Sequence record: NC_031928.1 | Direction: 5' to 3' (one strand) | DNA: 64,000 nt | Source: Escherichia phage WG01 | Shown here: positions 7,265 to 39,385 of the stretch, piece after piece | Position numbering within the stretch: position 1 is the stretch's first letter | Layout: every line of letters starts with the position of its first letter | The notes under the pieces: generated by a model | What the model was told of the DNA's origin: nothing | Databases searched by the model: none | Seen by the model: the letters and a program-made list of their open reading frames with translations, nothing else | Program-made: the position numbers and the translations under genes

Positions 7265-7300
7265 GGACCATTATACTCTGGTCCCAAGAGTTTGTAAACT
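7265..7300 (-). promoter_or_regulatory. T4-type early promoter cassette
   Basis: minus strand GTTTACA, 17 nt, TATAAT; dyad GGACCAGAG/TATAATGGTCC. Confidence 0.6.
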
Positions 7301-7499
7301 ATTTTTGACTCATTGCACCTTTCCAGCCTTCGTACATAGATGCAGCTGAAATTAATAAAGCGCCTGAACAACTTGAATATTTGTGGTTCCAAAACCAGTT
7401 CAGAAAAACTTCGTCATCAATACCTTGGGCTATCATATTTTCAAAGAACTGACGACGAGCTTCAGCAATTCGCTGTGATAATTTAGATTCAGGATTCAT
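7299..7499 (-). CDS. hypothetical protein (66 aa)
   Basis: ATG start. Confidence 0.35.
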   Translation of the reverse strand: MNPESKLSQRIAEARRQFFENMIAQGIDDEVFLNWFWNHKYSSCSGALLISAASMYEGWKGAMSQK

Positions 7500-7638
7500 T
7501 TAAATTTTCCAGTTTCCGTGTTTATCAATGAATTTAATCCAGTCATTTACTGACCACGTGGTTGTATCGCCCTTTGGACTAACATTTAAAGTGTATAGTC
7601 CTTGCTTAAAAAGCATTCGTTTGATATTCATATTTTCC

Positions 7639-7932
7639 TCAGCTATAACGATAACATTCGTTTGATTTACGTTTTGCAACTCGATGAGAAGTATTGTAAT
7701 CAGGTTCATCGTCATTGTAAACATCTTTTTTCAGCTTTCTCACTTCTTTACGAAGCTGGCGGTTCATTTCGTTCTTAACTTCAGAATCAACACCGCGCAT
7801 ACGTTTCCACTTGTCGGAACGGAAGATATTTTCTTCAACCAGTTCCTGACTTACGCCGTCCGGTGCTTTACGACGTCCGGAATAATAAAAATCTTTTACA
7901 GACAATTCTTTACGACGAATAGTTTTACCCAT
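7639..7932 (-). CDS. hypothetical basic protein (97 aa)
   Basis: ATG with GAGGT RBS; Lys/Arg-rich. Confidence 0.4.
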   Translation of the reverse strand: MGKTIRRKELSVKDFYYSGRRKAPDGVSQELVEENIFRSDKWKRMRGVDSEVKNEMNRQLRKEVRKLKKDVYNDDEPDYNTSHRVAKRKSNECYRYS

Positions 7933-7934
7933 AG

Positions 7935-8189
7935 TTACCTCAGCAGTTTGTATCCAATAAGATTTTTAATGTATTGGACATCTTTGACATCCAAATCTAA
8001 CTTAATATCTTTCAGACGGTCGCACAGGGTCAAAAAGGTTACATGTTTCCAATTCTTCACTGGGCAACAATAAGTCTTAGGACCATTTGCAATTTCAATA
8101 TTCTTATCAGTGACGGTGAGAAAAATCAGGCGCTCATCATCCAGATTAAGGGTAATGATATTTTTCATTGAATGTAATTTCAGACTCAT
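7935..8189 (-). CDS. hypothetical protein (84 aa)
   Basis: ATG start. Confidence 0.4.
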   Translation of the reverse strand: MSLKLHSMKNIITLNLDDERLIFLTVTDKNIEIANGPKTYCCPVKNWKHVTFLTLCDRLKDIKLDLDVKDVQYIKNLIGYKLLR

Positions 8190-8368
8190 GATTTAATTTC
8201 CTTAGCTACTGAACAAAATAAAGAACGGTCGCACACCATCAATGGAGCATCAGGGTGAGTCAAAGGTTGATACCATACATCGAGATTTGTTACCTTTGTT
8301 ACTTGAACAGGGTAGCCATTTACTGAATAATACTGGTCGGCTTTAATTTCTTTATCTTGGATAGTCAT
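8186..8368 (-). CDS. hypothetical protein (60 aa)
   Basis: ATG with GAGGAG RBS. Confidence 0.4.
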   Translation of the reverse strand: MTIQDKEIKADQYYSVNGYPVQVTKVTNLDVWYQPLTHPDAPLMVCDRSLFCSVAKEIKS

Positions 8369-8387
8369 AATGTTCTCCTCATGTGTT

Positions 8388-8428
8388 GATAGGATAGACT
8401 ATAACACGTGAGGAGAGGAAGTAAATAC
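8388..8428 (-). promoter_or_regulatory. early promoter cassette (degenerate copy)
   Basis: ATTTAC -35-like and TATAGT -10-like, same layout as the other cassettes. Confidence 0.4.
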
Positions 8429-8745
8429 TAATCTTCAATTAAATCTTGGTCATAACCAAGTTCAATCAAAAGCGATTTGAAGGCAGGAATATTTTCTATT
8501 TTCTTATTATCGACAAATATGACAGGATAGCGTATCGCTAAGCTCTTGAAGCCTGCACGTTTGGCCAATGATACTATAAGAGGCTTGTCGTATACTGCGC
8601 CTGACGGCGTCTGGTTAATCACAGGATAGAAAGTATGTGGGATAGAAAGGGAATTTAGGAGCGATAGAACAGCAATGCACCCTGGACAGCGCATGACTGT
8701 CTCAGGGATACCGTAAATCTCAATTTTAGTTAACTTTTGGTCCAC
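8428..8745 (-). CDS. glutaredoxin/thioredoxin-fold protein (NrdH-like?)
   Basis: 105 aa; GTG start with AAGGAG RBS; CPGC after a beta-strand-like KIEIYG; C-terminal YPVIFVDNKKIENIP resembles the glutaredoxin P-x-I-F motif. Confidence 0.5.
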   Translation of the reverse strand: MDQKLTKIEIYGIPETVMRCPGCIAVLSLLNSLSIPHTFYPVINQTPSGAVYDKPLIVSLAKRAGFKSLAIRYPVIFVDNKKIENIPAFKSLLIELGYDQDLIED

Positions 8746-9022
8746 AGGAAATAACTCCTTGGTAGTCCCAAGTTTTTAGAACTTCGTCTTCATTAGTTCC
8801 GTATGGGACGTAAATCTGGATAAGGAACCCGGTATCATCAAAAGAGAAATAGACAGTAGGTTTAATACCATGAATCTCTGACAGAGCATAGATGTCCTTG
8901 AGGTCGTCTTCCTTACCTTTAAAGAATTCAGGGTTCAGGTCACAGTCATGGAAGTACCAATCATCACCAAACTTGTCCCAAGCGGTCCAATTCAAAGCTA
9001 CATATTCTTCAAAACGTTTCAT
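8726..9022 (-). CDS. hypothetical acidic protein (98 aa)
   Basis: ATG with AAGGTGA RBS. Confidence 0.4.
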   Translation of the reverse strand: MKRFEEYVALNWTAWDKFGDDWYFHDCDLNPEFFKGKEDDLKDIYALSEIHGIKPTVYFSFDDTGFLIQIYVPYGTNEDEVLKTWDYQGVISCGPKVN

Positions 9023-9234
9023 TCTTTCACCTTCATCATTTTTGCAATAACACTATGAACAGCCTGGATTCGTTTGTCGAACTCGGACCCTTCAAGACCT
9101 TTTTCAGTACTCAGAGCACCAATAATCATGAACAGCAATCCAAACGGAATAGCCAGGATTAAAAGGCATACGATAAACAGAACCAATGTTATATTAGCCA
9201 GGATATCAGAAACAGCATTACGAAATTTATTCAT
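9019..9234 (-). CDS. small membrane protein
   Basis: ORF track start is GTG; ATG at 9234; one long hydrophobic helix. Confidence 0.35.
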   Translation of the reverse strand: MNKFRNAVSDILANITLVLFIVCLLILAIPFGLLFMIIGALSTEKGLEGSEFDKRIQAVHSVIAKMMKVKE

Positions 9235-9355
9235 TAAAGAACCCACATGTTAGTTACAACAAATAACCATTGAGCAGGATACTCAACACCCATAATACGC
9301 ACCGCATCATTCAGAGATTCGGCTAAAGCATAAAATGTGTAGCCATAAAAATTAA

Positions 9356-9829: not shown

Positions 9830-9864
9830 AATAAACCCTTACCATTATTAGATAAGGGTATTTA

Positions 9865-10062
9865 TTATTTTTCAAATGTACTATAAAACGAGCGATGCAA
9901 CCGTTTAAATTGACGAATCATCTTTTTAGTAGGACGGGTGTATAACCCTACACAAGTGGCCATAAACTGATCAGTAGGACTTCCTTTAATAAGAAGTTTC
10001 CAGACTTTACCGCCATTTAACTTTTCAGTATAAATCAGTTCAGTTTTCATAGTAAAACCCAT
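9865..10062 (-). CDS. hypothetical protein
   Basis: ORF track start is TTG; ATG candidates at 10062 and 10050 with weak RBS. Confidence 0.3.
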   Translation of the reverse strand: MGFTMKTELIYTEKLNGGKVWKLLIKGSPTDQFMATCVGLYTRPTKKMIRQFKRLHRSFYSTFEK

Positions 10063-10094
10063 ATTCCATATCAATTAAATCATTGTTTGAAGGT

Positions 10095-10127
10095 TCATTA
10101 TACTCTATTTCGGAATCGTTGTAAACG
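10095..10127 (-). promoter_or_regulatory. T4-type early promoter
   Basis: minus strand GTTTACA, 17 nt, TATAAT. Confidence 0.6.
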
Positions 10128-10181
10128 GGTTCCTCTGGCTCGGTAGGTTCTATCGTATCCCACCGAGCGACATACCATGGC

Positions 10182-10908: not shown

Positions 10909-10909
10909 T

Positions 10910-11444: not shown

Positions 11445-12451
11445 TTCAGCAGCTCCAGAGCCTGTTCAAGACGGTCTAAACGATTGGTAGACTCTTCCCA
11501 AAGTTTCTTGGCAGCGGTATATTGTCCAGCCAGTTTTTTGTTGATAGCAAGGGCATCTTTATACGCTTTTTCTAAGGCAACGACTTCTGGTAACTTGGAT
11601 TTAGTAATTGGTGTAGGGGCCATGATAGGGCCGTTCAAGTCGTTAATCAAATCTTCTAATGTAGCAGGCTCTTTATCAGTGTTCACAATTTCCTCACATT
11701 TTTCTTGGTAAATTTCAGCGTCAGTTTTTGGAACGGTACATTTGATTTCACGGACTGTTACTAAGACTTCATATCCTTTCCAGCCTAAGTGGTGTTTAAC
11801 TTCTTGGGTCTCATATTTCTCTACGGTATCCATCAGAGCTAAAGCCTGTTCGATAGTATTCAAGGTATCGTAAGCAATATCTTGATACTTTACAACTTCC
11901 GCATCATCTTTAGGTTTCCTATTAGGCGACCAAATAACAGAAATAATAGCTTTTCCTTTATAACTATTTGTTTTAATCATGCAATTAGCCATCGGGTGAA
12001 TAGTACGACAATCACCGGAAACTATAGTTTTAGAGGCCGCTTTGAGAATTAATGCAGAGTTAGCCTTGAATTCGCTAACCCAACGTTGCGGAAATAAACT
12101 ATTAGGGTCCATACCTTTAATTTTGATATAACCTTTTATGGTATCACCAAACCATTTGTAGCTAACAACACGGTTGGAACCTGGATATTTCTCTTTACCG
12201 AACTCAGAAAGGATGTCCTTATTGACCAGGCGCGAAAGCAGTCGAGAACCTTTAAATGTTTTAATGATATCATGAATGCACAAACGGCCTGCAATCTTTT
12301 CGATTTCAGCTTTGAAACAGCGCGATAATGCATCATCAATTTGGTCGACCCATTTATTGATATTAGAAACTATTACCTCGTATGGGGTTAACGGAGGGGT
12401 GTTGGTAGTGATATACGTAGTAAAGGCATTGATGTATTCAGTACGAGTCAT
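11441..12451 (-). CDS. conserved hypothetical protein (336 aa)
   Basis: ATG at 12451 with GAGGAG RBS; the 13 upstream codons of the ORF-track version lie in the promoter. Confidence 0.5.
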   Translation of the reverse strand: MTRTEYINAFTTYITTNTPPLTPYEVIVSNINKWVDQIDDALSRCFKAEIEKIAGRLCIHDIIKTFKGSRLLSRLVNKDILSEFGKEKYPGSNRVVSYKWFGDTIKGYIKIKGMDPNSLFPQRWVSEFKANSALILKAASKTIVSGDCRTIHPMANCMIKTNSYKGKAIISVIWSPNRKPKDDAEVVKYQDIAYDTLNTIEQALALMDTVEKYETQEVKHHLGWKGYEVLVTVREIKCTVPKTDAEIYQEKCEEIVNTDKEPATLEDLINDLNGPIMAPTPITKSKLPEVVALEKAYKDALAINKKLAGQYTAAKKLWEESTNRLDRLEQALELLK

Positions 12452-12477
12452 GATATTCTCCTCAGTAGATTTAAAAA

Positions 12478-12509
12478 GATTATACTCCATCCGTCCTTGG
12501 ATGTAAACA
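12478..12509 (-). promoter_or_regulatory. T4-type early promoter
   Basis: minus strand GTTTACA, 17 nt, TATAAT. Confidence 0.65.
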
Positions 12510-14441: not shown

Positions 14442-14465
14442 AATAATTTCCTCAGTAAGTAATTA

Positions 14466-14500
14466 AGAACCTAGAACCATTATACCATCCTTGGTATAAA
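14466..14500 (-). promoter_or_regulatory. candidate MotA-dependent middle promoter
   Basis: minus strand GCTTTA (MotA-box-like), 12 nt, TATAAT; no GTTTAC -35. Confidence 0.35.
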
Positions 14501-14504
14501 GCGT

Positions 14505-15029
14505 TTATGCGAGAACCGTCTTTAAACGCTCTTCAAATTTCTGAAGCAGAGCTTGGCGTTCAGCTCGTTGTGATTTGTACTGCTCGATACGACCTGAAGT
14601 GAGGGCGTACTGTTCGTTTACTGATTCCCGCATGAATTCAGGAATCTCTTTACAAGCTTTGATTTCGTCAAACTTATCAATAACAGCTTGTTGTTCAGCA
14701 ATCAGATTATCGAAATAAGCGATATCAGATTTAACGTTTGCCAGGTCAGATTCGGTAGGCATTAAACGTTTGTTACGTTCAGCTTGATAAGCTTGATTGG
14801 TTTCACGACTCCAGTGAAGAGTACGTTTTTTGTTAGTGTTTTTATAGAGCTCTACAATACCAACTGAATCGATGACAACAATCCAGTTCCAACGGCTTTT
14901 GTAAATCTCTCCTCCAGATACAGTAATCTCATTACCACAAGCAACGTCGTTAAAGAACTTGCTTTGTTTTTCGGATTTGAAATTACCATTGTTATAATTG
15001 ATGAGTGAAAAAATATCTTTAGCGTTCAT
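14505..15029 (-). CDS. hypothetical protein (174 aa)
   Basis: ORF with coiled-coil C-terminus. Confidence 0.5.
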   Translation of the reverse strand: MNAKDIFSLINYNNGNFKSEKQSKFFNDVACGNEITVSGGEIYKSRWNWIVVIDSVGIVELYKNTNKKRTLHWSRETNQAYQAERNKRLMPTESDLANVKSDIAYFDNLIAEQQAVIDKFDEIKACKEIPEFMRESVNEQYALTSGRIEQYKSQRAERQALLQKFEERLKTVLA

Positions 15030-15043
15030 GTTAACCTCCAGTA

Positions 15044-15081
15044 GTTGATAGGTCTATAGTATCATTTCTACTGGAGATGTA
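15044..15081 (-). promoter_or_regulatory. early promoter cassette
   Basis: GTTTAC -35 and TACTATAGACC -10 region with dyad CAGTAG/CTACTG. Confidence 0.55.
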
Positions 15082-15086
15082 AACAA

Positions 15087-15437: not shown

Positions 15438-16418
15438 TTATTTCAGAAGTGTAACTTCAGCGATTTCGCTCCAGTCATTTTTATCGGTGGCAATGAAGTC
15501 CGCCAGATAAAGAGCTGTACGTAATGATACGTTACGAAGACGAGATACATTAGCCTTCATCCATGCTAAAGCTTGGTAAGTCTCGGCATCAGTCAGACCA
15601 CGGTTTTGCATCATATCAGTGGACAGGATAACGTCTTCAACACGAACCATAATCTCTTCGTTAGAGTGAACTCCGAGGTCTAAGTAAACTGAACGAGATA
15701 CTAAAGCCTGGAGGTGTGGAGCAAGTTTAGTTCCACGCTCTAATTCACGGTCAATATCAACGTTGGTGATGAACACGATGGTGCCTTCATACTCAAATTC
15801 TTTATCGATATTTTTATCATCAAGATAAGAACTTGAAGTGCTCCAGCACACCTTACGTTTTTCACCAGTATCCAATGCTGCTTTTAACAGGTTCAGGATA
15901 TCCATATCAGAGAATACATCAACATCATCAATAAGAAGAACACTATTAGGGCCGCGGTTATTCCAAAGCTGCTCGTAAAGACCGATTCCACTAATCTTTC
16001 CGTTGATTGATTTATATTCGATAGTTTCATTTTCGTGGGCATTCTGTAATGCTTTATCCAAAGAATATGTTTTACCAATACCTGCGGCACCAGAGATTAT
16101 AAGGGAACGAATTTTACCATCGATGATTCCGTTAGTCATCATGTTCATTACTTTAAAACGTTTGTTGATACGGTGTTTCATTTCTTCAGCGGATTCAGTA
16201 ACCATTGCAGGAGCTGGTGCGCCTTCGGTTTCGATATCACATTTGAATACCCATACACCACGTTCAACACCATCAATCTGTACGAATACCTTGCCATCAC
16301 CGAGGTGAGCTTCGGATTCATGAATTTTGTTAGGGAACCAGGTTTTACCTGAACTCATGAACGTACCAGAGATTTCATTACCGCGATAGATACCTTTGTT
16401 GATTTTGATAGTTAACAT
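15438..16418 (-). CDS. P-loop NTPase (326 aa)
   Basis: ATG at 16418 with GGAGA RBS; Walker A GAAGIGKTYS and Walker B VLLIDDVD; upstream ORF-track codons lie in the promoter. Confidence 0.55.
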   Translation of the reverse strand: MLTIKINKGIYRGNEISGTFMSSGKTWFPNKIHESEAHLGDGKVFVQIDGVERGVWVFKCDIETEGAPAPAMVTESAEEMKHRINKRFKVMNMMTNGIIDGKIRSLIISGAAGIGKTYSLDKALQNAHENETIEYKSINGKISGIGLYEQLWNNRGPNSVLLIDDVDVFSDMDILNLLKAALDTGEKRKVCWSTSSSYLDDKNIDKEFEYEGTIVFITNVDIDRELERGTKLAPHLQALVSRSVYLDLGVHSNEEIMVRVEDVILSTDMMQNRGLTDAETYQALAWMKANVSRLRNVSLRTALYLADFIATDKNDWSEIAEVTLLK

Positions 16419-16444
16419 TATATTCTCCATTTCACTCAGTAGAT

Positions 16445-16485
16445 TTGATAGGTCTATAATAACATGTTTAAAGCAGATGTACACA
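16445..16485 (-). promoter_or_regulatory. promoter cassette variant (GTGTACA -35, TGCTTTA box)
   Basis: same dyad core GATAGGTCTATAATAACATG; -35 reads GTGTACA and a MotA-box-like TGCTTTA overlaps it. Confidence 0.45.
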
Positions 16486-16486: not shown

Positions 16487-16717
16487 TTATTTTGCAATAA
16501 TTTCACAGAAGCCATCTTTATAGCGGGCCCATGTTTCACCATTTACTGTATAAAGAGCAGCTTTACGGCCATTAGGCATAACAACTTGTTTACCTTTGTT
16601 TTTAGTTACTGCTTCAATAATTTCGTATTCTTCAGCACGATCAGCTTTAAAGGTATCTTCCAGAGCGATCAAGTTAGTAGTGTAAGAACCGTATTTGTAA
16701 TTTTTGATAGCGTACAT
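16487..16717 (-). CDS. hypothetical protein (76 aa)
   Basis: ATG ORF between two identical promoter cassettes. Confidence 0.4.
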   Translation of the reverse strand: MYAIKNYKYGSYTTNLIALEDTFKADRAEEYEIIEAVTKNKGKQVVMPNGRKAALYTVNGETWARYKDGFCEIIAK

Positions 16718-16757
16718 TTTTATATCTCCGTTTGGTTTAAGTTTTCAGCTCTTTAGC

Positions 16758-16796
16758 TGATAGGTCTATAATAACATGTTTAAAGCAGATGTACAC
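16758..16796 (-). promoter_or_regulatory. promoter cassette variant (duplicate of 16445..16485)
   Basis: near-identical ~40-bp copy. Confidence 0.45.
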
Positions 16797-16816: not shown

Positions 16817-16838
16817 AAAAAAGGCCCGAAGGCCTTTT
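16817..16838 (-). terminator. rho-independent terminator (bidirectional shape)
   Basis: GGCC-CGAA-GGCC hairpin flanked by A6 and T4. Confidence 0.55.
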
Positions 16839-19386: not shown

Positions 19387-19623
19387 TCACCAGTATTTGT
19401 TGATAGTAGAAATTAATTCTTGGGCTTGGGTAGTCTTCAGTTTACATCCACAACCCTTTAATGTGTCTTTAAGGAGCCACGGTTCCTTGAGCTCGTCCTT
19501 TTCTAGACGAATTCTGTATCCTCGATAATCAGCGAAGATACTTCGGTCGTCGAATATCTTAATCTCAAGGATACGACCGTTGATTTCATATTCTAATGAA
19601 ACCGTAGTACTTGTAAGTTTCAT
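19387..19623 (-). CDS. hypothetical protein (78 aa)
   Basis: ATG ORF directly downstream of a promoter cassette. Confidence 0.4.
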   Translation of the reverse strand: MKLTSTTVSLEYEINGRILEIKIFDDRSIFADYRGYRIRLEKDELKEPWLLKDTLKGCGCKLKTTQAQELISTINKYW

Positions 19624-19640
19624 ACTGTTCTCCTCATTAG

Positions 19641-19680
19641 TTGATAGGTCTATAGTATCATGTTCCTAGAGGATGTAAAC
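19641..19680 (-). promoter_or_regulatory. early promoter cassette
   Basis: GTTTACA -35, TACTATAGACC -10 region, same cassette. Confidence 0.55.
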
Positions 19681-19687: not shown

Positions 19688-19714
19688 CGAAAAAAGGTCC
19701 CACCGAAGTGAGAC
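19688..19714 (-). terminator. rho-independent terminator
   Basis: 8-bp stem with CGAA-type loop followed by T6 on the minus strand. Confidence 0.55.
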
Positions 19715-19720
19715 CTTTGA

Positions 19721-23083: not shown

Positions 23084-23542
23084 TTAAAGATAGATTACTT
23101 TCGTGCTGGTTTTACCTTCTAAACGTTTAGAGTTAACAAATGCCATACGACATTTAAGGGAATATCCTTTATCAGGATGTTTACGGTCTACAGTCATACC
23201 TAGCCATAAGGTTTTATCGGTAATTTCGAGACGCAATGGGCGATACACTTTACCAGGAATGATTTCGGCTTCTACATCAGGCAGAGGTTCCTGGATTAAA
23301 AATTCATGAATTTCTTTAACATGGTTATGGAGTTGCTTGAATAAAGCAAAAACGTATTTTTCGTCGATTTCACGTTGGATAGCACGGTCCAACAAGTGAT
23401 TAGAGTACTTAATAAAGAAGGCTGGGACTCCGCTCTTAATGGCGGCTTTTTTGATGGACGCATTCAGTTCACGGAATTCGGTTTCGAACTGACGACGTAA
23501 TTTATTGCGGCGGATGAATACTTCTGAATTAATTTCTGACAT
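23084..23542 (-). CDS. regB: RegB site-specific endoribonuclease
   Basis: ATG at 23542 gives 153 aa (T4 RegB length) starting MSEINSEVFIRRNKLRR, closely matching T4 RegB as recalled; the longer ORF-track version runs into the promoter. Confidence 0.85.
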   Translation of the reverse strand: MSEINSEVFIRRNKLRRQFETEFRELNASIKKAAIKSGVPAFFIKYSNHLLDRAIQREIDEKYVFALFKQLHNHVKEIHEFLIQEPLPDVEAEIIPGKVYRPLRLEITDKTLWLGMTVDRKHPDKGYSLKCRMAFVNSKRLEGKTSTKVIYL

Positions 23543-23559
23543 TTTGTAATCTCCTGTAG

Positions 23560-23600
23560 TTGATAGGTTTATAGTATCATACCTACAGGAGATGTAAACT
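23560..23600 (-). promoter_or_regulatory. early promoter cassette
   Basis: GTTTACA -35, TACTATAAACC -10 region, dyad CCTGTAG/CTACAGG. Confidence 0.6.
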
Positions 23601-25059: not shown

Positions 25060-25317
25060 TTAACGTTCTTCGTGTTTAAAACCTTTCTTAGTAAACAGCT
25101 TAACAACATCTGCTACTTTACGAAGTTGATCTGCATCAGCAACCAGTTGCTTAACCACTTTCTCGTCAGTTTCTTTAGAGCTAAAAGCGTGCTCAAGTTC
25201 GTCATCATTAGGGTCGGCCATAGAAACTTCAGTGCCGGAAGGTTTAACGTTTACAATCATATTCCAACGTTTAGAAACTAAAGTGGATTCTGTAATAAAT
25301 TCTTGGTAAGTTTTCAT
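25060..25317 (-). CDS. internal-protein-like packaged protein (CTS-tagged, 85 aa)
   Basis: N-terminus MKTYQEFITE, the T4 capsid-targeting sequence ending in the prohead-protease motif I/L-x-E. Confidence 0.6.
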   Translation of the reverse strand: MKTYQEFITESTLVSKRWNMIVNVKPSGTEVSMADPNDDELEHAFSSKETDEKVVKQLVADADQLRKVADVVKLFTKKGFKHEER

Positions 25318-25325
25318 ATTAAGCC

Positions 25326-25685
25326 TTAAAGATGGTCTAGTGCCGGGTTATGAGGTTTTTCTGCTTTAGTAGTGTTTTTATGCCAATCTGATTTAGAAAC
25401 ACGGATGGCATCCGCGCCATAAGAACTCTTAAGGAGACCTTTTTTATTGTACACACTTATTGAAGTAAGAGAATCACCATTCCATGTAGCATGAATGAAG
25501 TTAGATTTAGATTTAAGTTCTTTAGCCAAGCTCTGGTTAGTGGCCATGGAAGCAAAGTCTTTACCTGTAACTTTAAAAACTTCAGATGGGTTCAGCCCTT
25601 CTTTGGCCTTAGCCAATTGTTCAGGAGACATAGCTTCGTTAATGCGCTGAGTAGATTCAGTAATAAATTGTTGGTAAGTTTTCAT
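25326..25685 (-). CDS. internal-protein-like packaged protein (CTS-tagged, 119 aa)
   Basis: N-terminus MKTYQQFITE. Confidence 0.6.
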   Translation of the reverse strand: MKTYQQFITESTQRINEAMSPEQLAKAKEGLNPSEVFKVTGKDFASMATNQSLAKELKSKSNFIHATWNGDSLTSISVYNKKGLLKSSYGADAIRVSKSDWHKNTTKAEKPHNPALDHL

Positions 25686-25727
25686 ATTATTCCTTAAGTT
25701 GATAGAAGTATTCTATCACGGATTTAA

Positions 25728-26144
25728 TTAAGCGTAAATAGCCTTGCCGTAATGTTTGTACCAGGTAGAGCGTTGTGCAATTTTTTCGTCCAAACGGGCC
25801 TGAGATATAGCAATAGAAGCTTCGTGTGGAGTATAGTCACCACGGAATTCCTGAGGAATGTCACTAATGTCCTGGACAGTAGTATCCTTGATATTAAAAC
25901 CACGTTTTAAACATTCGGCTATAAGCTCAATTTGTCGCTTACGTAAAAATTCAAGCTTATCGTAAAAGAATGTAACATGGCCTGTGCCAAGGATAAAAGT
26001 AGGACTGATTTTGAAATCACGGACACGTTTACCATTAGCAACATGCTTACGAACTGCACCGAAAACACGTGGTAATTCACGATATTCAGCCATTAAGTGT
26101 TGGTCAGCCAATTCAGATACTAAGGTAAGGTTGATACGAGTCAT
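25728..26144 (-). CDS. denV: endonuclease V (pyrimidine-dimer DNA glycosylase) DenV
   Basis: 138 aa; near-identical to T4 DenV as recalled ([34 protein letters not shown]...). Confidence 0.95.
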
Positions 26145-26159
26145 TTTTAATCTCCTGTA

Positions 26160-26200
26160 GTTGATAGGTCTATAGTATCATGACTACAGGAGATGTAAAC
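26160..26200 (-). promoter_or_regulatory. early promoter cassette
   Basis: GTTTACA -35, TACTATAGACC -10 region, dyad CCTGTAG/CTACAGG. Confidence 0.6.
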
Positions 26201-26224: not shown

Positions 26225-26821
26225 TTAATTACCACGGGCAGCATTAGCAACGGCGTAAGCGTACTGAATATTAGCGTCTTTAAACGTACCTTTAGAGGTA
26301 TCTATTTCTGCCTTAAAGCCGCCTTTAGCCATAACATCGGCAAATTCTTTACGGAAAGTCATTGCATCAAGACCTTTCCATGCGGATTTATGCTTGGCAA
26401 ATTCAAGACCGGCGAAGTTGACCGCCTTAGCCAATTTATTATCAATAGTCCATTTACCTGCTTTAGGTACAAATACAGGACCTTTCTGTTTAGAGAACAG
26501 TTTTAAATTCCAGCGACGAAGGTCGCCGTCAGCTTTAACAAAAGCTGCGTCCAAGTTACTAGCAACAACATCTTGGATATGGGCAAATTTAAGTCCATCA
26601 GCTTCAATATTTAGGTCGTTACGCCAGCGAAGTCCTTCCCAGGCGAAAGCTTTAAAATCAGAAGCTTTTGTAGCCAAGTACCGTTCAATAGGAGCTGTTT
26701 TAGCGTCAAAACCGTTTCCTGGGTTGTCAACGCCGTTTCCTTTGTAAGTCCACTCATCTTTATTAATGCCTTGGACCTTTCCTACAGAAGCTTCGGCGAT
26801 AAATTCTTTATACGTTTTCAT
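26225..26821 (-). CDS. ipIII: internal protein III-like (CTS-tagged, 198 aa)
   Basis: N-terminus MKTYKEFIAE; length and position next to e match T4 IPIII. Confidence 0.7.
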   Translation of the reverse strand: MKTYKEFIAEASVGKVQGINKDEWTYKGNGVDNPGNGFDAKTAPIERYLATKASDFKAFAWEGLRWRNDLNIEADGLKFAHIQDVVASNLDAAFVKADGDLRRWNLKLFSKQKGPVFVPKAGKWTIDNKLAKAVNFAGLEFAKHKSAWKGLDAMTFRKEFADVMAKGGFKAEIDTSKGTFKDANIQYAYAVANAARGN

Positions 26822-26867
26822 ACGGGTTCCTTAAAGGAAAATATTTTAATTGGTCTGTTCAAGTAAC

Positions 26868-26903
26868 TGTAGATATACTATCACAATTCTAGGAGATGTA
26901 AAC
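26868..26903 (-). promoter_or_regulatory. early promoter cassette (short copy)
   Basis: GTTTACATCTCCTAG followed by TAGTAT. Confidence 0.45.
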
Positions 26904-27783: not shown

Positions 27784-27787
27784 AATA

Positions 27788-27813
27788 CCTCCTGAGTATA
27801 GGAGGTATTTATA
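27788..27813 (-). promoter_or_regulatory. late promoter TATAAATA with RBS-sequestering hairpin for e
   Basis: minus strand TATAAATA-CCTCC-tatactca-GGAGG-tatt-ATG; the 5' arm CCTCC can pair with the RBS GGAGG. Confidence 0.6.
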
Positions 27814-28263
27814 TCAAAAGAGTGAATCCAAAACCTTAAACATCGACGGGCCCATGACATATTCCCATTGTGGCCGTTTAATCAAGGCAAAAGCATCGAA
27901 TTCAGGAATAGTACGACCATCAGGGAACGTATGGTAAGCCGTACATTTGCAATCCTTGAACTGCTCGTGTTCCACAGGAACTGTATATAAGAACAGATGT
28001 AGATTCTTATTGCTTGAATATTTGAACTCACCTAGGTCTTTCAGGAACGCAGGATCGTATGCTGTGAATCCAATCTCTTCTTCGGTTTCGCGCATTGCCG
28101 CTTGAATGGGCTCTTCGCCTGGTTCGACATGACCCTTAGGAATGTCCCATTTATGACGCATATTCTCTGGATTACGAGAGCCTGTTACACGGCCCATGAC
28201 CAGTTCTTTATCAACGGTCATGAATAAAATACCGGCAGATAGTTCTTTCACTTTCTTACTCAT
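27814..28263 (-). CDS. nudE: Nudix hydrolase NudE
   Basis: ATG at 28263 gives 150 aa; Nudix box GHVEPGEEPIQAAMRETEEEIG; follows e as in T4. Confidence 0.85.
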   Translation of the reverse strand: MSKKVKELSAGILFMTVDKELVMGRVTGSRNPENMRHKWDIPKGHVEPGEEPIQAAMRETEEEIGFTAYDPAFLKDLGEFKYSSNKNLHLFLYTVPVEHEQFKDCKCTAYHTFPDGRTIPEFDAFALIKRPQWEYVMGPSMFKVLDSLF

Positions 28264-29776: not shown

Positions 29777-29989
29777 TTACTTTTTGTTGAAAAAGTACAT
29801 TTTACCTTTAGGAGATAAGGATACACGAAGTGCGTTACCAATACCAACTGAACATTTAACCAGGTCAGCAGATTTCAATTCACCAAATGCTTGACGAAGG
29901 TCACCATCACGAGTGTTAACCATCAGGCATTTAGCACCAGCTGCACGAACTTCGTTTAACATGTTGATTGCTTGGTTAGAAAGTTTCAT
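29777..29989 (-). CDS. hypothetical protein (70 aa)
   Basis: ATG at 29989 with GGAGA RBS; upstream ORF-track codons lie in the promoter. Confidence 0.4.
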   Translation of the reverse strand: MKLSNQAINMLNEVRAAGAKCLMVNTRDGDLRQAFGELKSADLVKCSVGIGNALRVSLSPKGKMYFFNKK

Positions 29990-30015
29990 TTTATTCTCCA
30001 TTTCACTCTGTTGTT

Positions 30016-30056
30016 TTGATAGGTCTATAGTATCACACCTATAGACCTTGTACACT
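30016..30056 (-). promoter_or_regulatory. promoter cassette variant (GTGTACA -35)
   Basis: dyad GGTCTATAG/CTATAGACC around TACTATAGACC. Confidence 0.5.
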
Positions 30057-31046: not shown

Positions 31047-31286
31047 TTAAATTTCAGCGACGTAATCGTTATGCAATTCCCACATATCATCAGAATTATT
31101 CTTAATGATAGGAATTATCTCATTAGAGATTTCTTCAGCATAAGGGTCATTGATACAGTGGGCATCTTCAAAACGAACACCGTAATCAGACTTCTTATAA
31201 GAGAAGCCATAAATCTTTTTAAACTTGGCGCGAGTAATGCGTACCGGTTCATTAGACTTATCGGACATCGGAGCGTAATACCACAT
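31047..31286 (-). CDS. hypothetical protein (79 aa)
   Basis: ATG ORF downstream of a promoter cassette. Confidence 0.4.
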   Translation of the reverse strand: MWYYAPMSDKSNEPVRITRAKFKKIYGFSYKKSDYGVRFEDAHCINDPYAEEISNEIIPIIKNNSDDMWELHNDYVAEI

Positions 31287-31305
31287 ATGTTCTCCTCATG
31301 TTTGT

Positions 31306-31350
31306 GTAGGGTAATAGTAACATGATTTTCTAGAGTTGTACATCACTTCT
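31306..31350 (-). promoter_or_regulatory. promoter cassette variant
   Basis: TGTACA -35-like and TACTAT -10-like with dyad GGGTAATAG. Confidence 0.4.
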
Positions 31351-32146: not shown

Positions 32147-32359
32147 TTAGCAAGACATAGAGGATGTAAACCAGAAACCTTCACCTTCCGGAATACCGTA
32201 GTCATCACGGACCCATTCGTAATCATCATATTCCGGGTTCTTTGGAGAAATGTATTCTCCACGACCAGAAACACGGAACTCTTCACCCGTTTCGTCAGCC
32301 ACAGACTGGCCTTTACGTACTAATTCACGGATTTGGTTTTCAATTTCATCAATAGTCAT
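32147..32359 (-). CDS. small acidic protein, paralog family member
   Basis: 70 aa; ATG with AAGGA RBS; ends FWFTSSMSC. Confidence 0.45.
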   Translation of the reverse strand: MTIDEIENQIRELVRKGQSVADETGEEFRVSGRGEYISPKNPEYDDYEWVRDDYGIPEGEGFWFTSSMSC

Positions 32360-33877: not shown

Positions 33878-34471
33878 TTACTTAAGTGAATTAATGTAGT
33901 CTTCGATATCAGCAGAAGTCGTATCCATTCCAACTTGCGGGCCTTTAAACGTTTCTACGCGCATCAGGGTGTCTTCGATATCAATCTTGGTCAGTGCAGC
34001 AATTTCAACAACATCGTCGGCAGTAGCAATACCAAGGGCAGCCATATTACGAGTTTCACGGATGTACTCGAGCTTAACAGCCAGTTCCTGACGAGAGTCA
34101 TCAAGTTCCTTAACCTTCAGTTTAATTTCATTACGCATTTCGATATAATCATCGGCTTTCTTACGAAGCTGGGTAGCTGTACGACGATAAAGGAGGCCAA
34201 GTTTAGCATGTACCTGGACATCAGCGCCTTCGGCAATCAGTTTACGAATTTCACGTTCTTTAGAAGCAGCGAGCTGGTCTTTTTCATTAGCCAATGCACG
34301 AATACGTTTTTCTTCATTCACAGACTTAACATGAGCAGTCTGGAGTTCAGTGATTTTATCAATCAGAGTAGAAGCAGCTTTGGTGTATTGGTCTTCGATT
34401 GACAGGTTCTGAGCCATTGCGGTGCCCAGTTTAGAACGAATGAATTCAACGATTTTCTTTAAAGTGTTCAT
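33878..34471 (-). CDS. coiled-coil protein (197 aa)
   Basis: ATG at 34471 with GAAGGA RBS; upstream ORF-track codons lie in the promoter. Confidence 0.45.
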
Positions 34472-34500
34472 AGTATTTCCTTCAGTTGGTTGATATTTTG

Positions 34501-34545
34501 TAATCCATGAGGACATTATACCCTGTCCTCTGAGGTTTGTAAACA
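34501..34545 (-). promoter_or_regulatory. T4-type early promoter with stem-loop
   Basis: minus strand GTTTACA, 17 nt, TATAAT; dyad GAGGACA/TGTCCTC. Confidence 0.6.
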
Positions 34546-34547: not shown

Positions 34548-34946
34548 TTATTTCATTTTTGCGAGGCAGATTTCATTGGCTTCCCATTGAGCTTGCTTAA
34601 TAATAGCTTTGGATACAGGAGCCCTTTGGCCATAAGTTTTTGACGTTGAGAGAACAATACATTTGTTTGCTTCATTATGCCAGCCCCATGATTTTTCGCC
34701 ATGAGTACCTTTAACTACAGCTGACACCTCAACAGAGCAACCACCATCAGAAATCTTGGTTTCGACAACCCATTCATTTCTCTCAGCAGCTTCAATTTCT
34801 AATCTAGTTTTTTCTTCATACATCGCGGCCCAATCAGTTTTTGCCAAGTTGAAAGTAAGAGCTTTCTCTAATTCTTTGGCATATTTTTGTTGTTCAGGTG
34901 TTAATGAATTATACAACTCTTGCATTTCTTTATCTTCGATATTCAT
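34548..34946 (-). CDS. hypothetical protein (132 aa)
   Basis: ATG with GAGGAG RBS. Confidence 0.45.
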
Positions 34947-35004
34947 TATGTTCTCCTCAAATTATGGGCTCATAATATCTTAATCATGAGCCCATGTAAA
35001 CGTT

Positions 35005-35268
35005 TTATTTCATATTATTGAAATAATTTTCTGCATCAAAATCATTACCATGGTAAACTTTGGTAGACGATTTGGCGTAACCTTCAGCTGAGAACATATT
35101 AATCACAACTTTAATTGTATACCACTGTCCATCTTCATTACCCATTACTGCATAGGTTTCATACACCGGGTGTTCAGGACCGATAACCTTAATATCGTTA
35201 ACTGTGGCACCAAATTCTTCCGGAACACATTTCATAAAGAAATTAAACACTTCACCATAATTATCCAT
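35005..35268 (-). CDS. hypothetical protein (87 aa)
   Basis: ORF track start is GTG in the promoter; ATG at 35268 with AAGGAG RBS. Confidence 0.4.
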   Translation of the reverse strand: MDNYGEVFNFFMKCVPEEFGATVNDIKVIGPEHPVYETYAVMGNEDGQWYTIKVVINMFSAEGYAKSSTKVYHGNDFDAENYFNNMK

Positions 35269-35291
35269 TTTACTCTCCTTCACTCTGTTGT

Positions 35292-35332
35292 TTTGATAGG
35301 TCTATAGTATCATGTTCTACGAAAGAGTAAAC
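35292..35332 (-). promoter_or_regulatory. early promoter cassette
   Basis: GTTTAC -35, TACTATAGACC -10 region. Confidence 0.55.
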
Positions 35333-35355: not shown

Positions 35356-35384
35356 CAAAAAAGGCCCAACCTTTCGGAAGGGCC
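35356..35384 (-). terminator. rho-independent terminator
   Basis: GGCCC-TTCCGAAAGG-TTGGGC hairpin followed by T7 on the minus strand. Confidence 0.55.
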
Positions 35385-36487: not shown

Positions 36488-36488
36488 C

Positions 36489-36518
36489 AAAAAAAGCCCA
36501 ACCTTTCGGAAGGGCCTT
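36489..36518 (-). terminator. rho-independent terminator ending the tRNA/stable-RNA transcript
   Basis: same hairpin as 35356..35384 (GNRA loop) followed by T7. Confidence 0.55.
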
Positions 36519-36559
36519 TAACCTAGGGTAACCTTGTCGGGGTTCCACCTGCTAGGCAA

Positions 36560-36898
36560 GTGTTTGTACGAAACGCCGGGATTCGAACCCGGTTATTAAG
36601 TAGTTGACGCCACTCAATATTTTTAAAAGGCCATATCTCGACCATATCCGAACGTTCCGTCAAAAACGCTACTCGGCTTACGGCAAAGATATTTCCTCGA
36701 ATCGATAATTCGGTGCGCCGTTTCTGCTGTGATGTAAGGGGACGTTAACAGATCGTAAAGATTTGTTAATGCCAGTCCTTACTCAGGGAACATCAGTCCG
36801 ACGACTTACCGGTAGCGACCCGGTTTCTTGTTTGTTGCGCCGGTGAATGCTGGTAATCAGTCTTCATACGACGGCTTGACTATATAATAGTCTTCATT
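36560..36898 (-). ncRNA. candidate stable RNA(s) downstream of the tRNAs
   Basis: ~340 bp with no ORF of 60 aa or more; minus-strand T-arm-like hairpin CCGGG-TTCGAAT-CCCGG at ~36575-36595; no full cloverleaf found by eye. Confidence 0.25.
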
Positions 36899-36973
36899 TG
36901 GTATCCCGCCCTGGGATCGAACCAGGACCGCAAACTTAGAAGGATCGTATGCTATCCATTACACCAGCGGGAC
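36899..36973 (-). tRNA. tRNA-Arg (anticodon TCT)
   Basis: minus strand cloverleaf with anticodon loop CTTCTAA, T-loop GGTTCGATCC and encoded CCA. Confidence 0.8.
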
Positions 36974-36978
36974 GTAGT

Positions 36979-37055
36979 TGGTGACCCAGACCAGATTTGA
37001 ACTGGTAACCTTTCCCTTATGAGGGGACTGCTGCTAACCATTGAGCTACAGGGCC
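36979..37055 (-). tRNA. tRNA with CAT anticodon (Met or lysidine-type Ile)
   Basis: minus strand GGCCCTGTAGCTCAATGGTTAGCAGCAGTCCCCTCATAAGGGAAAGG...GTTCAAATC...CCA. Confidence 0.7.
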
Positions 37056-37060
37056 TTAAA

Positions 37061-37327: not shown

Positions 37328-37506
37328 AAACACCTCAAATAAAATTAAGTAAAGTAAGTTTGATTAATAGACCTTGTCTATTATGAAAGGTTCTTTGAGG
37401 GAAGAACCTTTGGTAATAGAGGGTTACTTAATAATGTTAGAGTAATAATAACACATTACTCTTAAAGCATATTACTATTTTTAGGAATAGTCTGGTCAAA
37501 TTTGAT

Positions 37507-37797
37507 TCATTGTGGCCACATATTAATGTAATCAAGTTTAATAGAAGCAATCTTCAAAGGATTTTTAAAGATGTCGTATTCGACCAACCCGTTTTCAGTT
37601 GCGGTGTAGAAAGTAAAGTTAACAGAATTATAACGGCGACCATTAACTTTTAGTTTAACGTCGCTTGAACTACGACCAATATTAACCTGTTGGACATCAA
37701 GCACAGCACCTTTGCCAAAGTTGCGAATCAGTAGCTCTGCTGCAACCTGGTCTGAATTATATCCATTCTCTGGATTAGTAACCTTAACGTATAACAT
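37507..37797 (-). CDS. hypothetical protein (96 aa)
   Basis: ATG ORF. Confidence 0.4.
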   Translation of the reverse strand: MLYVKVTNPENGYNSDQVAAELLIRNFGKGAVLDVQQVNIGRSSSDVKLKVNGRRYNSVNFTFYTATENGLVEYDIFKNPLKIASIKLDYINMWPQ

Positions 37798-38199
37798 TTA
37801 ACCCTCGTCTACAATAGTATGGGTATTGGCATTAACAATCTGCCACCAGTCAAAACGATCTGAGCCGTAAAGAGGATTATTCTCGTTTTCTTTAACAATT
37901 TCACGTAGTTCGTCTTCAGAAAATGCTTTAGCGATTAAATCGGTATAGCCACCACGTGGATAATAGTTATCACCAGCGAACAAAAGGAAATTTACCTTTC
38001 CAGAAGGAACATATGCTTCCTTAGGATACTTGTTTCCTGCATGGTCTACCACTTCAATATAACGGTAAGGAATATCAGTACTTTCAACCCATTGCCAAGC
38101 CGCAGCAGGGGATTCAAAAGCATCAACACCTAAACGGTTATCTTCATCTTTAGACGGATTATTTTCATAATCCGCATATACATAATATTCAACGTTCAT
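37798..38199 (-). CDS. hypothetical acidic protein (133 aa)
   Basis: ATG ORF. Confidence 0.4.
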   Translation of the reverse strand: MNVEYYVYADYENNPSKDEDNRLGVDAFESPAAAWQWVESTDIPYRYIEVVDHAGNKYPKEAYVPSGKVNFLLFAGDNYYPRGGYTDLIAKAFSEDELREIVKENENNPLYGSDRFDWWQIVNANTHTIVDEG

Positions 38200-38384
38200 T
38201 ATTCACCTTTAGAGATTTTATCCATAACGATAGCGATTAAGCCGATTAGAAATGCTACTACCAATGAGATAGAATTTTCTGTTGTTGTCAGTAGTCCACA
38301 AATGAATCCTACAAACATCGAAAAGCTAAAAGCCATTGAAGCAATTACTACAGCAACATTACGAATCAGTTCAGCGCGTTTCAT
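38199..38384 (-). CDS. small membrane protein (61 aa)
   Basis: two hydrophobic helices. Confidence 0.4.
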   Translation of the reverse strand: MKRAELIRNVAVVIASMAFSFSMFVGFICGLLTTTENSISLVVAFLIGLIAIVMDKISKGE

Positions 38385-38401
38385 TTTATTCTCCTCAGTA
38401 G

Positions 38402-38442
38402 TTGATAGGGTAATAGTATCACTACCCTATCTAAAAGTAAAC
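38402..38442 (-). promoter_or_regulatory. early promoter cassette
   Basis: GTTTAC -35 and dyad AGGGTAATAGTATCACTACCCT. Confidence 0.5.
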
Positions 38443-38453
38443 GGTTTTATAAA

Positions 38454-38762
38454 CTATTTTATTCCGCGTGATGCAATCGTATTCTGCCGTTTAACGCCAG
38501 TTTGTTTAAAGTTATGATTGTCGAGTTGATCGGTACGAGCAACTCCGAATGATGATTTAATCTTAGCTTTAGATCCTTTAGTTATAGAAATAAACATCTC
38601 GGGAGCCCCTTTCTTAAAGTCCGAAGCAATTACTTCAACACCGTTCTTAGCAAGTGACCTCAGAATTGCTTCCACATACTCATCATCAAGACCTGCTTGA
38701 GTATGAATAACGAATGTCTTTGGTGCAGCCGCTTCATTGATAAATTCTTGGTATGATTTCAT
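38454..38762 (-). CDS. internal-protein-like packaged protein (CTS-tagged, 102 aa)
   Basis: N-terminus MKSYQEFINE. Confidence 0.6.
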   Translation of the reverse strand: MKSYQEFINEAAAPKTFVIHTQAGLDDEYVEAILRSLAKNGVEVIASDFKKGAPEMFISITKGSKAKIKSSFGVARTDQLDNHNFKQTGVKRQNTIASRGIK

Positions 38763-38784
38763 TTTATTTTCCTAATTAATTTTG

Positions 38785-38822
38785 ATGAGATAATAGTACC
38801 ACAACCCTATTTAAAAGTAAAC
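38785..38822 (-). promoter_or_regulatory. early promoter cassette
   Basis: GTTTAC -35 and TACTAT -10-like. Confidence 0.45.
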
Positions 38823-39095
38823 TCATTTTAAATAAATTGCATATTTTTTATAACCCGCTGTCTCATGACGAAGACCCTTATCATTAGCAAAACGCTCAAT
38901 GTTGTTAATTTGATTCTGGTCAAGTTCAGAGATGTCAAACACGAAAAAGTTACGTTTGTTGCCTAAAGTTACGTGATTAGTCAAATCGATGTTATAGAGA
39001 TGATTTATATTATCAATCATGGTCTTAACAGATTTGTTAATTTTTACTTCTTCATTAAGAATAGATTCAGCGATAAATTCTTGGTATGATTTCAT
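38823..39095 (-). CDS. internal-protein-like packaged protein (CTS-tagged, 90 aa)
   Basis: N-terminus MKSYQEFIAE. Confidence 0.6.
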   Translation of the reverse strand: MKSYQEFIAESILNEEVKINKSVKTMIDNINHLYNIDLTNHVTLGNKRNFFVFDISELDQNQINNIERFANDKGLRHETAGYKKYAIYLK

Positions 39096-39096
39096 T

Positions 39097-39318
39097 TTAT
39101 TCTACGCCTGCGGCTTTCAAAAGTTTTTTAAGATTGGCTATGCCGCCAGCAGAAAACGTGACCTTGCCACCTTTTTCATTGATAGAGCCAGTCAATTTAG
39201 CAAGCTTATCACTAGGGACTTTTTTAAAATCAGCCAGTATGCCATCAAAGGTTTTTGTAACAACCGGCAGTTGGTCATGTTTTTTGGCTTCTGTAATAAA
39301 TTCTTGATAAGCTTTCAT
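39097..39318 (-). CDS. internal-protein-like packaged protein (CTS-tagged, 73 aa)
   Basis: N-terminus MKAYQEFITE. Confidence 0.6.
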   Translation of the reverse strand: MKAYQEFITEAKKHDQLPVVTKTFDGILADFKKVPSDKLAKLTGSINEKGGKVTFSAGGIANLKKLLKAAGVE

Positions 39319-39345
39319 TTTTGATTTCCGTTTGGTTAGTTTGTT

Positions 39346-39385
39346 TTGATAGGTCTATAGTATCATGCCTATAGACCTTGTAAAC
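39346..39385 (-). promoter_or_regulatory. early promoter cassette
   Basis: GTTTACA -35; dyad GGTCTATAG/CTATAGACC. Confidence 0.55.

Follow-up and report, generated by a model that had tools for sequence, protein, structure and literature searches.

Early promoters of phage T4 are described as an array of UP element, -35 box, TGn extension and -10 box, and in T4-like phages such promoters recur within larger composite units. Studies of RB49 and phi1 (Arbiol 2010) and of the pairs T4/PST and KVP40/nt-1 (Comeau 2014) defined these promoter-early-stem-loops (PeSLs) as an early promoter, an overlapping or adjacent stem-loop, a Shine-Dalgarno sequence and a start codon. Two T4 schemes for controlling messages bear on such units. 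Cleavage by the RegB nuclease, an enzyme inhibited by secondary structure, is the known means of switching off early messages, and long transcripts of e, soc, 49 and I-TevI fold their Shine-Dalgarno sequence into a hairpin, whereas an internal late promoter yields an open RNA (2010 review). Here we describe 20 promoter cassettes in Escherichia phage WG01, within a stretch of 64,000 nucleotides (nt) of record NC_031928.1, hereafter the window. We identify them as T4-type early promoters, and in one class of them the promoter is predicted to pair with the following gene's Shine-Dalgarno sequence whenever transcription comes from further upstream.

A 20-kb slice of the window places WG01 among the JS98-group T4-like phages, genus Dhakavirus, with QL01 as its best match (97% identity over 93% of the slice); about 30 records span 80% or more of it. 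Read from annotated relatives, the minus-strand genes run in the order rpbA, 46, 47, 55, nrdH, 49, nrdC.x, tk, vs, regB, denV, ipIII, e and e.x, followed by transfer RNAs (tRNAs), internal proteins, 57B/A, 1, 3, 2 and 4; the plus strand from 43 kb onward carries late baseplate genes. Because of this gene order, the cassettes lie within the classical early/middle region of a T4-type genome. Our comparison set consisted of six Dhakavirus relatives aligned to the window, together with T4; what the analysis shows directly is sequence, position, orthology, covariation and predicted folding.

The cassettes stand out by their promoter motif. A 20-mer, TTGATAGGTCTATAGTATCA, is present in the window in six exact copies and in ten at up to three mismatches, with 0.00 expected. 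The pattern GTTTACA-N17-TAYWAT at up to one mismatch gives nine matches, all on the minus strand, against 0.89 expected. The promoter consensus of the T4/PST PeSLs (TTTACW, N17, TAYWAT; Comeau 2014), searched as TTTACW-N16/17-TAYWAT, gives 14 exact matches between 7270 and 39384, again all on the minus strand (expected 0.53; none of 100 shuffles reaches 14). Only such a T4-specific pattern separates signal from noise, as a generic sigma-70 scan of the window did not (71 sites against 58.6 expected, and 55 against 55.6). When a -35-like hexamer, a spacer of 16-18 nt and TAnnnT had to be followed by a Shine-Dalgarno sequence and an ATG opening a reading frame of at least 35 codons, the whole window yielded 22 minus-strand sites and no plus-strand site, with none in the late block at 43-64 kb.

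We accepted 20 copies, each in an intergenic gap between 7.2 and 39.4 kb on the minus strand, with a predicted leader of 18-47 nt to the ATG. Six of these deviate from the consensus at one hexamer position (GTGTAC, ATGTAC, ATTTAC, TAGTAT, TAGAAT or TATAGT). A site at 32171, which has a weak -10 box (TAAGGT) and overlaps the end of a coding region, was not counted. The first-pass annotation of this DNA had listed 18 sites in plus-strand coordinates and read them as a T4 early-promoter layout just upstream of gene starts. All 18 coincide with promoter sites on the minus strand, the layout is borne out by the consensus matches and leader lengths given above, and two further copies, with -35 boxes starting at 35001 and 25739, extend the list. 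Chance is rejected, the motif counts being far above expectation. A conserved coding feature is likewise rejected, since every accepted copy is intergenic. Each points into a gene.

Aligned, the copies give the consensus aaaAA..tGTTTACat, spacer, catGaTActATa.aCCtAtcaA. Its parts are an A-rich upstream tract (consensus aaaAA; AT fraction 0.69 upstream of the -35 box against a background of 0.61), a -35 box GTTTAC, a TGn element (TG one base 5' of the -10 box in 14 of 20 copies, counted on the alignment), a -10 box TAcTAT or TATAAT and a start region TATCAA. T4 early promoters agree with them in hexamers and spacing, in the TG extension, the A-rich tract and the TATCAA start region, and also in orientation and in standing before early genes. 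Cassettes are found at the same genes in the six Dhakavirus relatives, with 14-17 intergenic copies per 49-kb locus, and T4 itself carries the element before regB, denV, ipII, ipIII, e.6, e.7, e.8, trna.4 and ipI, where the WG01 copies are orthologous to the T4 ones. The T4 regB promoter is experimentally established as a typical early promoter (2010 review), and the core of the T4 denV copy, GTTTACATCTCCTGTAGGTATGATACTATAGACCTATCAACTACAGGAG, is identical.

These observations make a strong case, from sequence and orthology, that the cassettes are T4-type sigma-70 early promoters. A recently mobile repeat is rejected, as cassette positions are conserved as far as T4. Where Dhakavirus differs from T4 is in the homogeneity of one core version: TGATACTATAGACCTATCAA recurs in 8-12 exact copies per Dhakavirus genome, once or twice in a few phage genomes outside the group, and at denV only in the one T4 stretch examined. 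The 20 predicted promoters would provide an early transcription map of the 7-40 kb region of the phage, marking immediate-early genes that are probably under RegB control.

Cassette genes also have a characteristic leader. GGAG stands 3-18 nt before the ATG in 13 of 20 cassette genes and in 6 of 72 other minus-strand genes (20-fold enrichment, p=5.5e-7). Eight leaders match the RegB/S1 target GGAGRAYARAA at up to one mismatch, two of them exact to the T4 optimum GGAGAAUAAAA (examples at 29989-29999 and 38384-38394), and the regB gene itself lies in the window at 23084-23542 on the minus strand. A leader AGTGAA(AT)GGAGA.TAAAATG, which the first-pass annotation had proposed as shared, is present at cassettes 30055, 16484 and 35332. 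As in the leaders of T4 early messages, GGAG is often followed by AAUAAAA and overlaps the cassette-driven gene's Shine-Dalgarno sequence. A cassette would in this way join a strong early promoter to a leader open to inactivation by the RegB of the phage itself.

The second component of the cassette is a hairpin, carried by some copies only. The promoter spacer of about half the copies is complementary to sequence 3' of the -10 box. Spacers paired with their own downstream sequence reach -11.4 kcal/mol, against -7.9 for non-cognate pairings (none of 20000 permutations as low). The flanking inverted repeats noted in the first-pass annotation are real, and their arms covary, but only some copies have them: 8 of 20 form hairpins of significant stability (z scores of -2.8 to -6.5, with 0-1 of 200 shuffles as good), and cassette 7299 is borderline. 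Stems comprise 7-13 bp and loops 6-9 nt or more.

The hairpins fall into two classes. In class I (39385, 30055, 38442, 35001, 34544 and 7299) the -10/discriminator region forms the 3' arm. In class II (26200, 23599, 15084 and 8426, with 12508 as a variant) the leader, Shine-Dalgarno sequence included, takes that place. The -10 box of either class is part of the loop or the 3' arm, and the start is predicted within the hairpin or directly after it. RNA from the cassette's own promoter would therefore lack the 5' arm, and only read-through RNA could fold. The features are as follows; each cassette is named by its high coordinate.

39318-39385, minus strand: cassette preceding the gene of an internal virion protein (73 aa); class I hairpin AGGTCTATAG (39369-39378) / CTATAGACCT (39351-39360), z -6.5.
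38762-38822, minus strand: chimeric cassette before a gene for a 102-aa internal head protein; 5' half like that of 38442, leader like that of T4 ipI; no hairpin, z +1.6.
38384-38442, minus strand: cassette before trna.4; class I hairpin GATAGGGTAGTG / TATTACCCTATC, z -3.4; exact RegB site GGAGAATAAAA in the leader.
35356-35384, minus strand: intrinsic terminator, GGCCC..GGGCC then T6, just upstream of cassette 35332.
35268-35332, minus strand: cassette before e.8; weak pairing of the spacer with the Shine-Dalgarno region only.
34946-35001, minus strand: cassette preceding a gene of 132 aa, located as e.7 is in T4; class I hairpin ATGGGCTCATGAT / ATTATGAGCCCAT, z -5.5; one of the two added copies.
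34471-34544, minus strand: cassette before e.6; class I stem of 7 bp, GAGGACA / TGTCCTC, whose loop holds the -10 box; not significant against shuffles.
31286-31343, minus strand: cassette with -35 box ATGTAC before a 79-aa gene; weak pairing of the spacer with the Shine-Dalgarno sequence.
29989-30055, minus strand: cassette with -35 box GTGTAC preceding a gene of 70 aa; class I hairpin AGGTCTATAG / CTATAGACCT, z -2.8; exact RegB site GGAGAATAAAA.
26821-26903, minus strand: cassette before ipIII; long leader, no significant hairpin.
26144-26200, minus strand: cassette before denV; class II hairpin ATCTCCTGTAG.. (26176-26194) / ..CTACAGGAGAT (26150-26166), z -6.2; Shine-Dalgarno sequence predicted to be buried.
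25685-25739, minus strand: cassette with -35 box ATTTAC and -10 box TAGAAT before a 119-aa gene with an internal-protein-type N-terminus; the other added copy.
23542-23599, minus strand: cassette before regB, 90% identical to the denV cassette over 63 nt; class II hairpin, 5' arm 23575-23593 and 3' arm 23549-23565, z -4.8; Shine-Dalgarno sequence predicted to be buried.
19623-19680, minus strand: cassette before a 78-aa gene; weak TCCTC/GAGGA pairing; intrinsic terminator at 19693-19718 just upstream.
16717-16796, minus strand: cassette before a 76-aa open reading frame (ORF); 5' half identical to that of cassette 16484; intrinsic terminator at 16819-16838 upstream.
16418-16484, minus strand: cassette before nrdC.10; direct repeat with 16796 over 66 nt at 85% identity, including a 39-nt identical stretch at the promoter-proximal end.
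15029-15084, minus strand: cassette before nrdC.8; class II hairpin CTCCAGTAG / CTACTGGAG, z -5.3, a compensatory variant of the denV type.
12451-12508, minus strand: cassette before nrdC.4; a U-rich segment just 3' of the -10 box is predicted to pair with the Shine-Dalgarno sequence, in read-through RNA only.
10050-10126, minus strand: cassette before a 61-aa gene; no hairpin.
8368-8426, minus strand: cassette with -35 box ATTTAC and -10 box TATAGT before 55.6; class II hairpin TCTCCTCACGTGT / ACACATGAGGAGA, z -5.7.
7631-7722, minus strand: doubtful promoter-like site within the coding region upstream of 55.4, GTTTAC-N18-TACAAT (7693-7722), kept in 6 of 6 relatives.
7230-7299, minus strand: cassette before 55.2; class I hairpin GGGACCA / TGGTCC, borderline z -2.1.

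The doubtful site at 7722 could be a promoter internal to the coding region, or else a chance match that coding constraint has preserved.

Comparison between relatives indicates that the stems are maintained as stems. From viral contigs we collected loci for relatives of the protein at the e.7 position (6); e.6 gave 14 loci and regB 18. At the e.7 position the stem is ATGGGCTCAT/ATGAGCCCAT in WG01 and, by compensatory change, ACGGGCTCAT/ATGAGCCCGT in AnYang and dhabil; a U.G intermediate and one unpaired C.A occur in JS98, and T4 has ATAGGCT.AT/ATGAGCCTAT. The e.6 stem differs by lineage, reading GAGGACA/TGTCCTC, GAGGGCA/TGCCCTC, GGGAACAT/ATGTTCCC or GTGTAGGAG/CTCCTACAC, and GGGAACA/TGTTCCC is also among the compensatory variants. 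For denV we assembled 35 distinct upstream regions from T4-like phages. Here the bases flanking an invariant CTCC/GGAG core covary: in a count anchored on that core, 3.42 contiguous pairs are found against 1.00 +/- 0.36 after permutation (none of 20000 as high), and the arms form at least six families. Applied to 18 denV upstream regions aligned with MAFFT, RNAalifold gave no pairs, the arms being shifted against each other by 1-3 nt. Interior mismatches across 35 distinct stems are G.T in seven cases and A.C in one (p=0.07), a hint that the sense-strand RNA is what folds.

The best-conserved stems are those that pair with the Shine-Dalgarno sequence. Across the 35 denV regions, folding predicts an unpaired Shine-Dalgarno sequence with probability 0.06 in read-through RNA; the value is 0.41 for RNA beginning at the predicted start and 0.32 after shuffling of the upstream part (Wilcoxon p ~1e-10). 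Its pairing partners map upstream of the predicted start, and it is predicted to be paired in 31 of the 35. The same masking pattern appears at regB in five of six lineages, T4 among them, sometimes with a class I stem nested inside the class II stem. In the window itself, five of the 20 cassettes have a Shine-Dalgarno sequence with an unpaired probability of at most 0.01 in read-through RNA, which rises to 0.31-0.67 in RNA from the cassette's own promoter, again by prediction.

This geometry is that of the T4 hairpins at e, soc, 49 and I-TevI, an arrangement that the window also contains. At gene e (27784-27815, minus strand), TATAAATA is followed by ACCTCCT...AGGAGGT, which hides the lysozyme Shine-Dalgarno sequence, and at gene 49 (9835-9859, minus strand) a similar ACCCTTA...TAAGGGT hairpin precedes endonuclease VII. 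The class II cassettes differ in that their internal promoter is an early sigma-70 promoter rather than a late TATAAATA, so that the predicted outcome is translation in the first minutes only rather than late only. They differ also from the RegB/S1 sites described in T4, since by predicted folding the class II site is double-stranded in read-through RNA. The examples of hairpin control listed in the 2010 review do not include denV or regB. Translation gating by transcript origin is possibly a new point, in the form of a prediction backed by covariation. Mention of such hairpins may be found in older T4 work (Liebig and Rueger 1989).

Combining these observations, we propose the following account. 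Host sigma-70 RNA polymerase would read each cassette, whose promoter and short leader would form an immediate-early expression unit. RNA from the cassette's own promoter would be open. At the class II cassettes (denV, regB, nrdC.8, 55.6 and the nrdC.4 variant), read-through RNA would be masked and silent for the gene, and promoter-proximal RNA would be translated. The 40-65 nt that cassettes share would occasionally be used as recombination homology, most evidently at internal-protein loci. Taken as a whole, we hold this account to be probable. A narrower and more tentative claim, to which we give somewhat less than even chances, is that the stem-loops of T4-type early promoters serve primarily as a transcript-origin gate, hiding GGAG from ribosomes and from RegB in read-through RNA, and not as terminators or recombination devices. 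Since secondary structure inhibits RegB, the folded form would be resistant to that nuclease as well. If the claim is right, the gate would confine synthesis of proteins such as RegB and DenV to the first minutes of infection, and the mechanism of the late genes e, soc and 49 would then also operate at early promoters throughout the T4-like phages. It bears on the timing of early protein synthesis in these phages and on why early-promoter sequence is conserved beyond the needs of the polymerase.

Several observations weigh against the gate. A significant hairpin is absent from ten or 11 of the 20 cassettes. In read-through RNA the Shine-Dalgarno sequence is, on the mean of all cassettes, as accessible as at other genes (0.36 vs 0.36), so masking holds for a subset of cassettes and not for the whole class. 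Class I hairpins make no contact with the Shine-Dalgarno sequence, and the gate therefore leaves them unexplained; a role as intercistronic insulator, attenuator or 3'-end protector is possible. The excess of G.T over A.C is based on eight mismatches. Promoter activity in WG01, the start site, and all effects on translation or RNA decay are deduced from the comparisons above, and the start site is assumed throughout to lie 7 nt after the -10 box.

The cassettes resemble PeSLs in composite anatomy, in their repetition through the early region and in that some copies flank variable small ORFs, especially internal-protein genes. They could be mobile regulatory cassettes whose main significance is modular gene shuffling, a process to which the first-pass annotation had linked them; genes would then be excised or inserted between copies, possibly via mini-circles. 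The mechanism was shown experimentally in RB49/phi1 (Arbiol 2010), and WG01 offers traces of it: two ORFs flanked by cassette repeats where relatives have a single cassette, a chimeric cassette, a replaced cassette in ESCO10, spacers and leaders that reassort around a constant core, and the 8-12 exact 20-mers per Dhakavirus genome. Statistically, the link is weak. Taking as breakpoints the indels or replacements of at least 60 bp between the window and the six relatives, we find them at 13 of 19 cassette junctions and at 33 of 80 other gene junctions (p=0.04), but also at 9 of 19 other junctions whose spacer measures 30 nt or more (p=0.32). Of ~47 simple indels, a single one is bounded on either side by cassette repeats; in most the repeats measure at most 9 nt, and a few have Shine-Dalgarno/ATG repeats of 16-22 nt. 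Most cassettes moreover keep the same position from WG01 to T4, as expected of stable promoters and not of mobile DNA. The proposal that cassette density marks the plastic stretch holds on a regional scale, with 16 cassettes and 28 of 63 genes variable (missing in relatives) at 15-40 kb against four cassettes and 4 of 35 genes variable below 15 kb, but fails at the scale of genes, where those directly behind a cassette are variable in 6 of 20 cases and others in 26 of 78 (p=1.0). The link to indels is therefore weaker than for described PeSLs, and we think shuffling rather unlikely as the main significance of the cassettes.

The remaining alternatives concern the stem-loops themselves. They could be transcription terminators or attenuators that stop upstream RNA, making the cassette a terminator plus a promoter. 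The RB49 PeSL211/210 stem-loop cut lacZ expression as strongly as rrnB T1 (Arbiol 2010), a result that also counts against the gate, although such a drop in a fusion fits blocked translation or RNA processing equally well. That the hairpins are predicted to form in read-through RNA only would suit a terminator, as would the true intrinsic terminators just upstream of the -35 box in three cassettes. The stems in WG01, however, are not of the GC-tract/terminator type found in PeSLs, and about half of the copies have no stem. No cassette dyad has a T-run or appears in a terminator scan that does report 16819-16838 and 19693-19718; having no T-tail, the cassette hairpins are not canonical terminators. 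The conserved feature of class II, pairing with GGAG, would be needless for termination, and whereas the RB49/phi1 paper makes no mention of translation or ribosomes, it is with the Shine-Dalgarno sequence that the best-conserved WG01 stems pair. We consider a terminator or attenuator role unlikely. A protein operator is very improbable. The dyad around the -10 box (TGATA-N9-TATCA plus outer arms) overlaps the -10 box and start site and its inner part is highly conserved within Dhakavirus, and the shut-off of T4 early promoters, for which a phage protein binding there could account, is still mechanistically unexplained in the cited reviews. But the TGATA half is simply TGn with the first -10 bases, the right half is the start region common to T4 promoters, half of the copies have no dyad, and the outer arms differ from copy to copy with compensatory change, the signature of nucleic-acid pairing and not of a protein site. 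Hardly any more credible is an action of the inverted repeats at the DNA level, where cruciforms or single-strand hairpins would promote recombination or be targets of endonuclease VII. The window does contain two cassette-bounded modules, yet the stems are short, with loops of 6-9 nt or more, breakpoints are not significantly enriched over spacer junctions, and cruciforms would show no strand preference of the kind seen in the G.T and A.C counts.

Cassette exchange nevertheless does occur, as the two modules and the mosaic copies illustrate. The ORF for the 102-aa internal head protein (38762-38454) lies between cassettes 38822 and 38442, which share a 41-nt, 85% identical repeat; QL01, IME08 and AnYang have a single cassette and no ORF. 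The 76-aa ORF (16717-16487) lies between cassettes 16796 and 16484, with their 66-nt repeat, and is missing in five of six relatives. In both pairs the duplicated part is the 5' half and core only, as expected for a crossover within the core. Cassette 38822 combines a trna.4-type 5' half with an ipI-type leader and has lost the hairpin, and in ESCO10 the e.8 cassette has been replaced by a T4-type one, with the breakpoint 11 nt before the ATG. Cassettes can thus serve as crossover sites, mainly at internal-protein loci, in agreement with earlier reports of exchange there, but leave the greater part of the observed plasticity unaccounted for. The six relatives provide a partial test of the PeSL hypothesis: cassette exchange takes place, notably at internal-protein loci affecting host range, and explains few indels.

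Internal-protein genes carry repeats of their own. A 48-nt, 90% identical direct repeat (25282-25329 and 25650-25697) covers the Shine-Dalgarno sequence, the ATG and N-terminal codons. The encoded segment, MK(T/S/A)YQ(E/Q)FI, is a repeated N-terminal capsid-targeting segment and is found also at the gene starts 39318, 38762 and 26821. This repeat offers a second stretch of homology for exchange beside the promoters. Elsewhere, HNH/homing-endonuclease genes that the window does not have are present in three relatives (L001, which is QL01, L003 and L005) at 4617-4773 and 41722-41734 (607 and 639 nt), with no cassette involved.

A different composite occurs in ~350-kb T4-like contigs (L042-L044 and L049). 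Upstream of denV, the -35 box TTGAC lies inside a true terminator stem, GGGTTGAC-TTCG-GTCAGCCC, followed by T5. Judged by its sequence, this is a different terminator-promoter type, closer to the RB49 and nt-1 PeSLs, and its Shine-Dalgarno sequence is unmasked.

Gaps without cassettes in the window carry other T4 signals, namely MotA-box middle promoters, TATAAATA late promoters and intrinsic terminators. Middle-promoter-like sites with a MotA box (TGCTT) lie on the minus strand at ~6330-6385, 4760-4815, 1210-1275 and 14445-14510, upstream of gene 55 and other genes; the gene 55 site has in common with the early cassettes the sequence TAATAGACCTAT after its -10 box. An Rfam scan of the window at gathering thresholds returned two tRNAs as its sole matches. 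Next to tRNA-Arg (36899-36973) and tRNA-Met (36979-37055), a non-coding minus-strand stretch at 36539-36834, which has no Rfam family, is 93% identical to T4 stable RNAs C and D; 144 nt of it (36565-36708) are missing in some relatives. Finally, the deposited product names of ESCO10 (L006, OM386655) are out of register with its genes, leaving the gene 46 position unnamed and placing 'terminase' labels on genes 3 and 2, in what looks like an annotation error in the public record.

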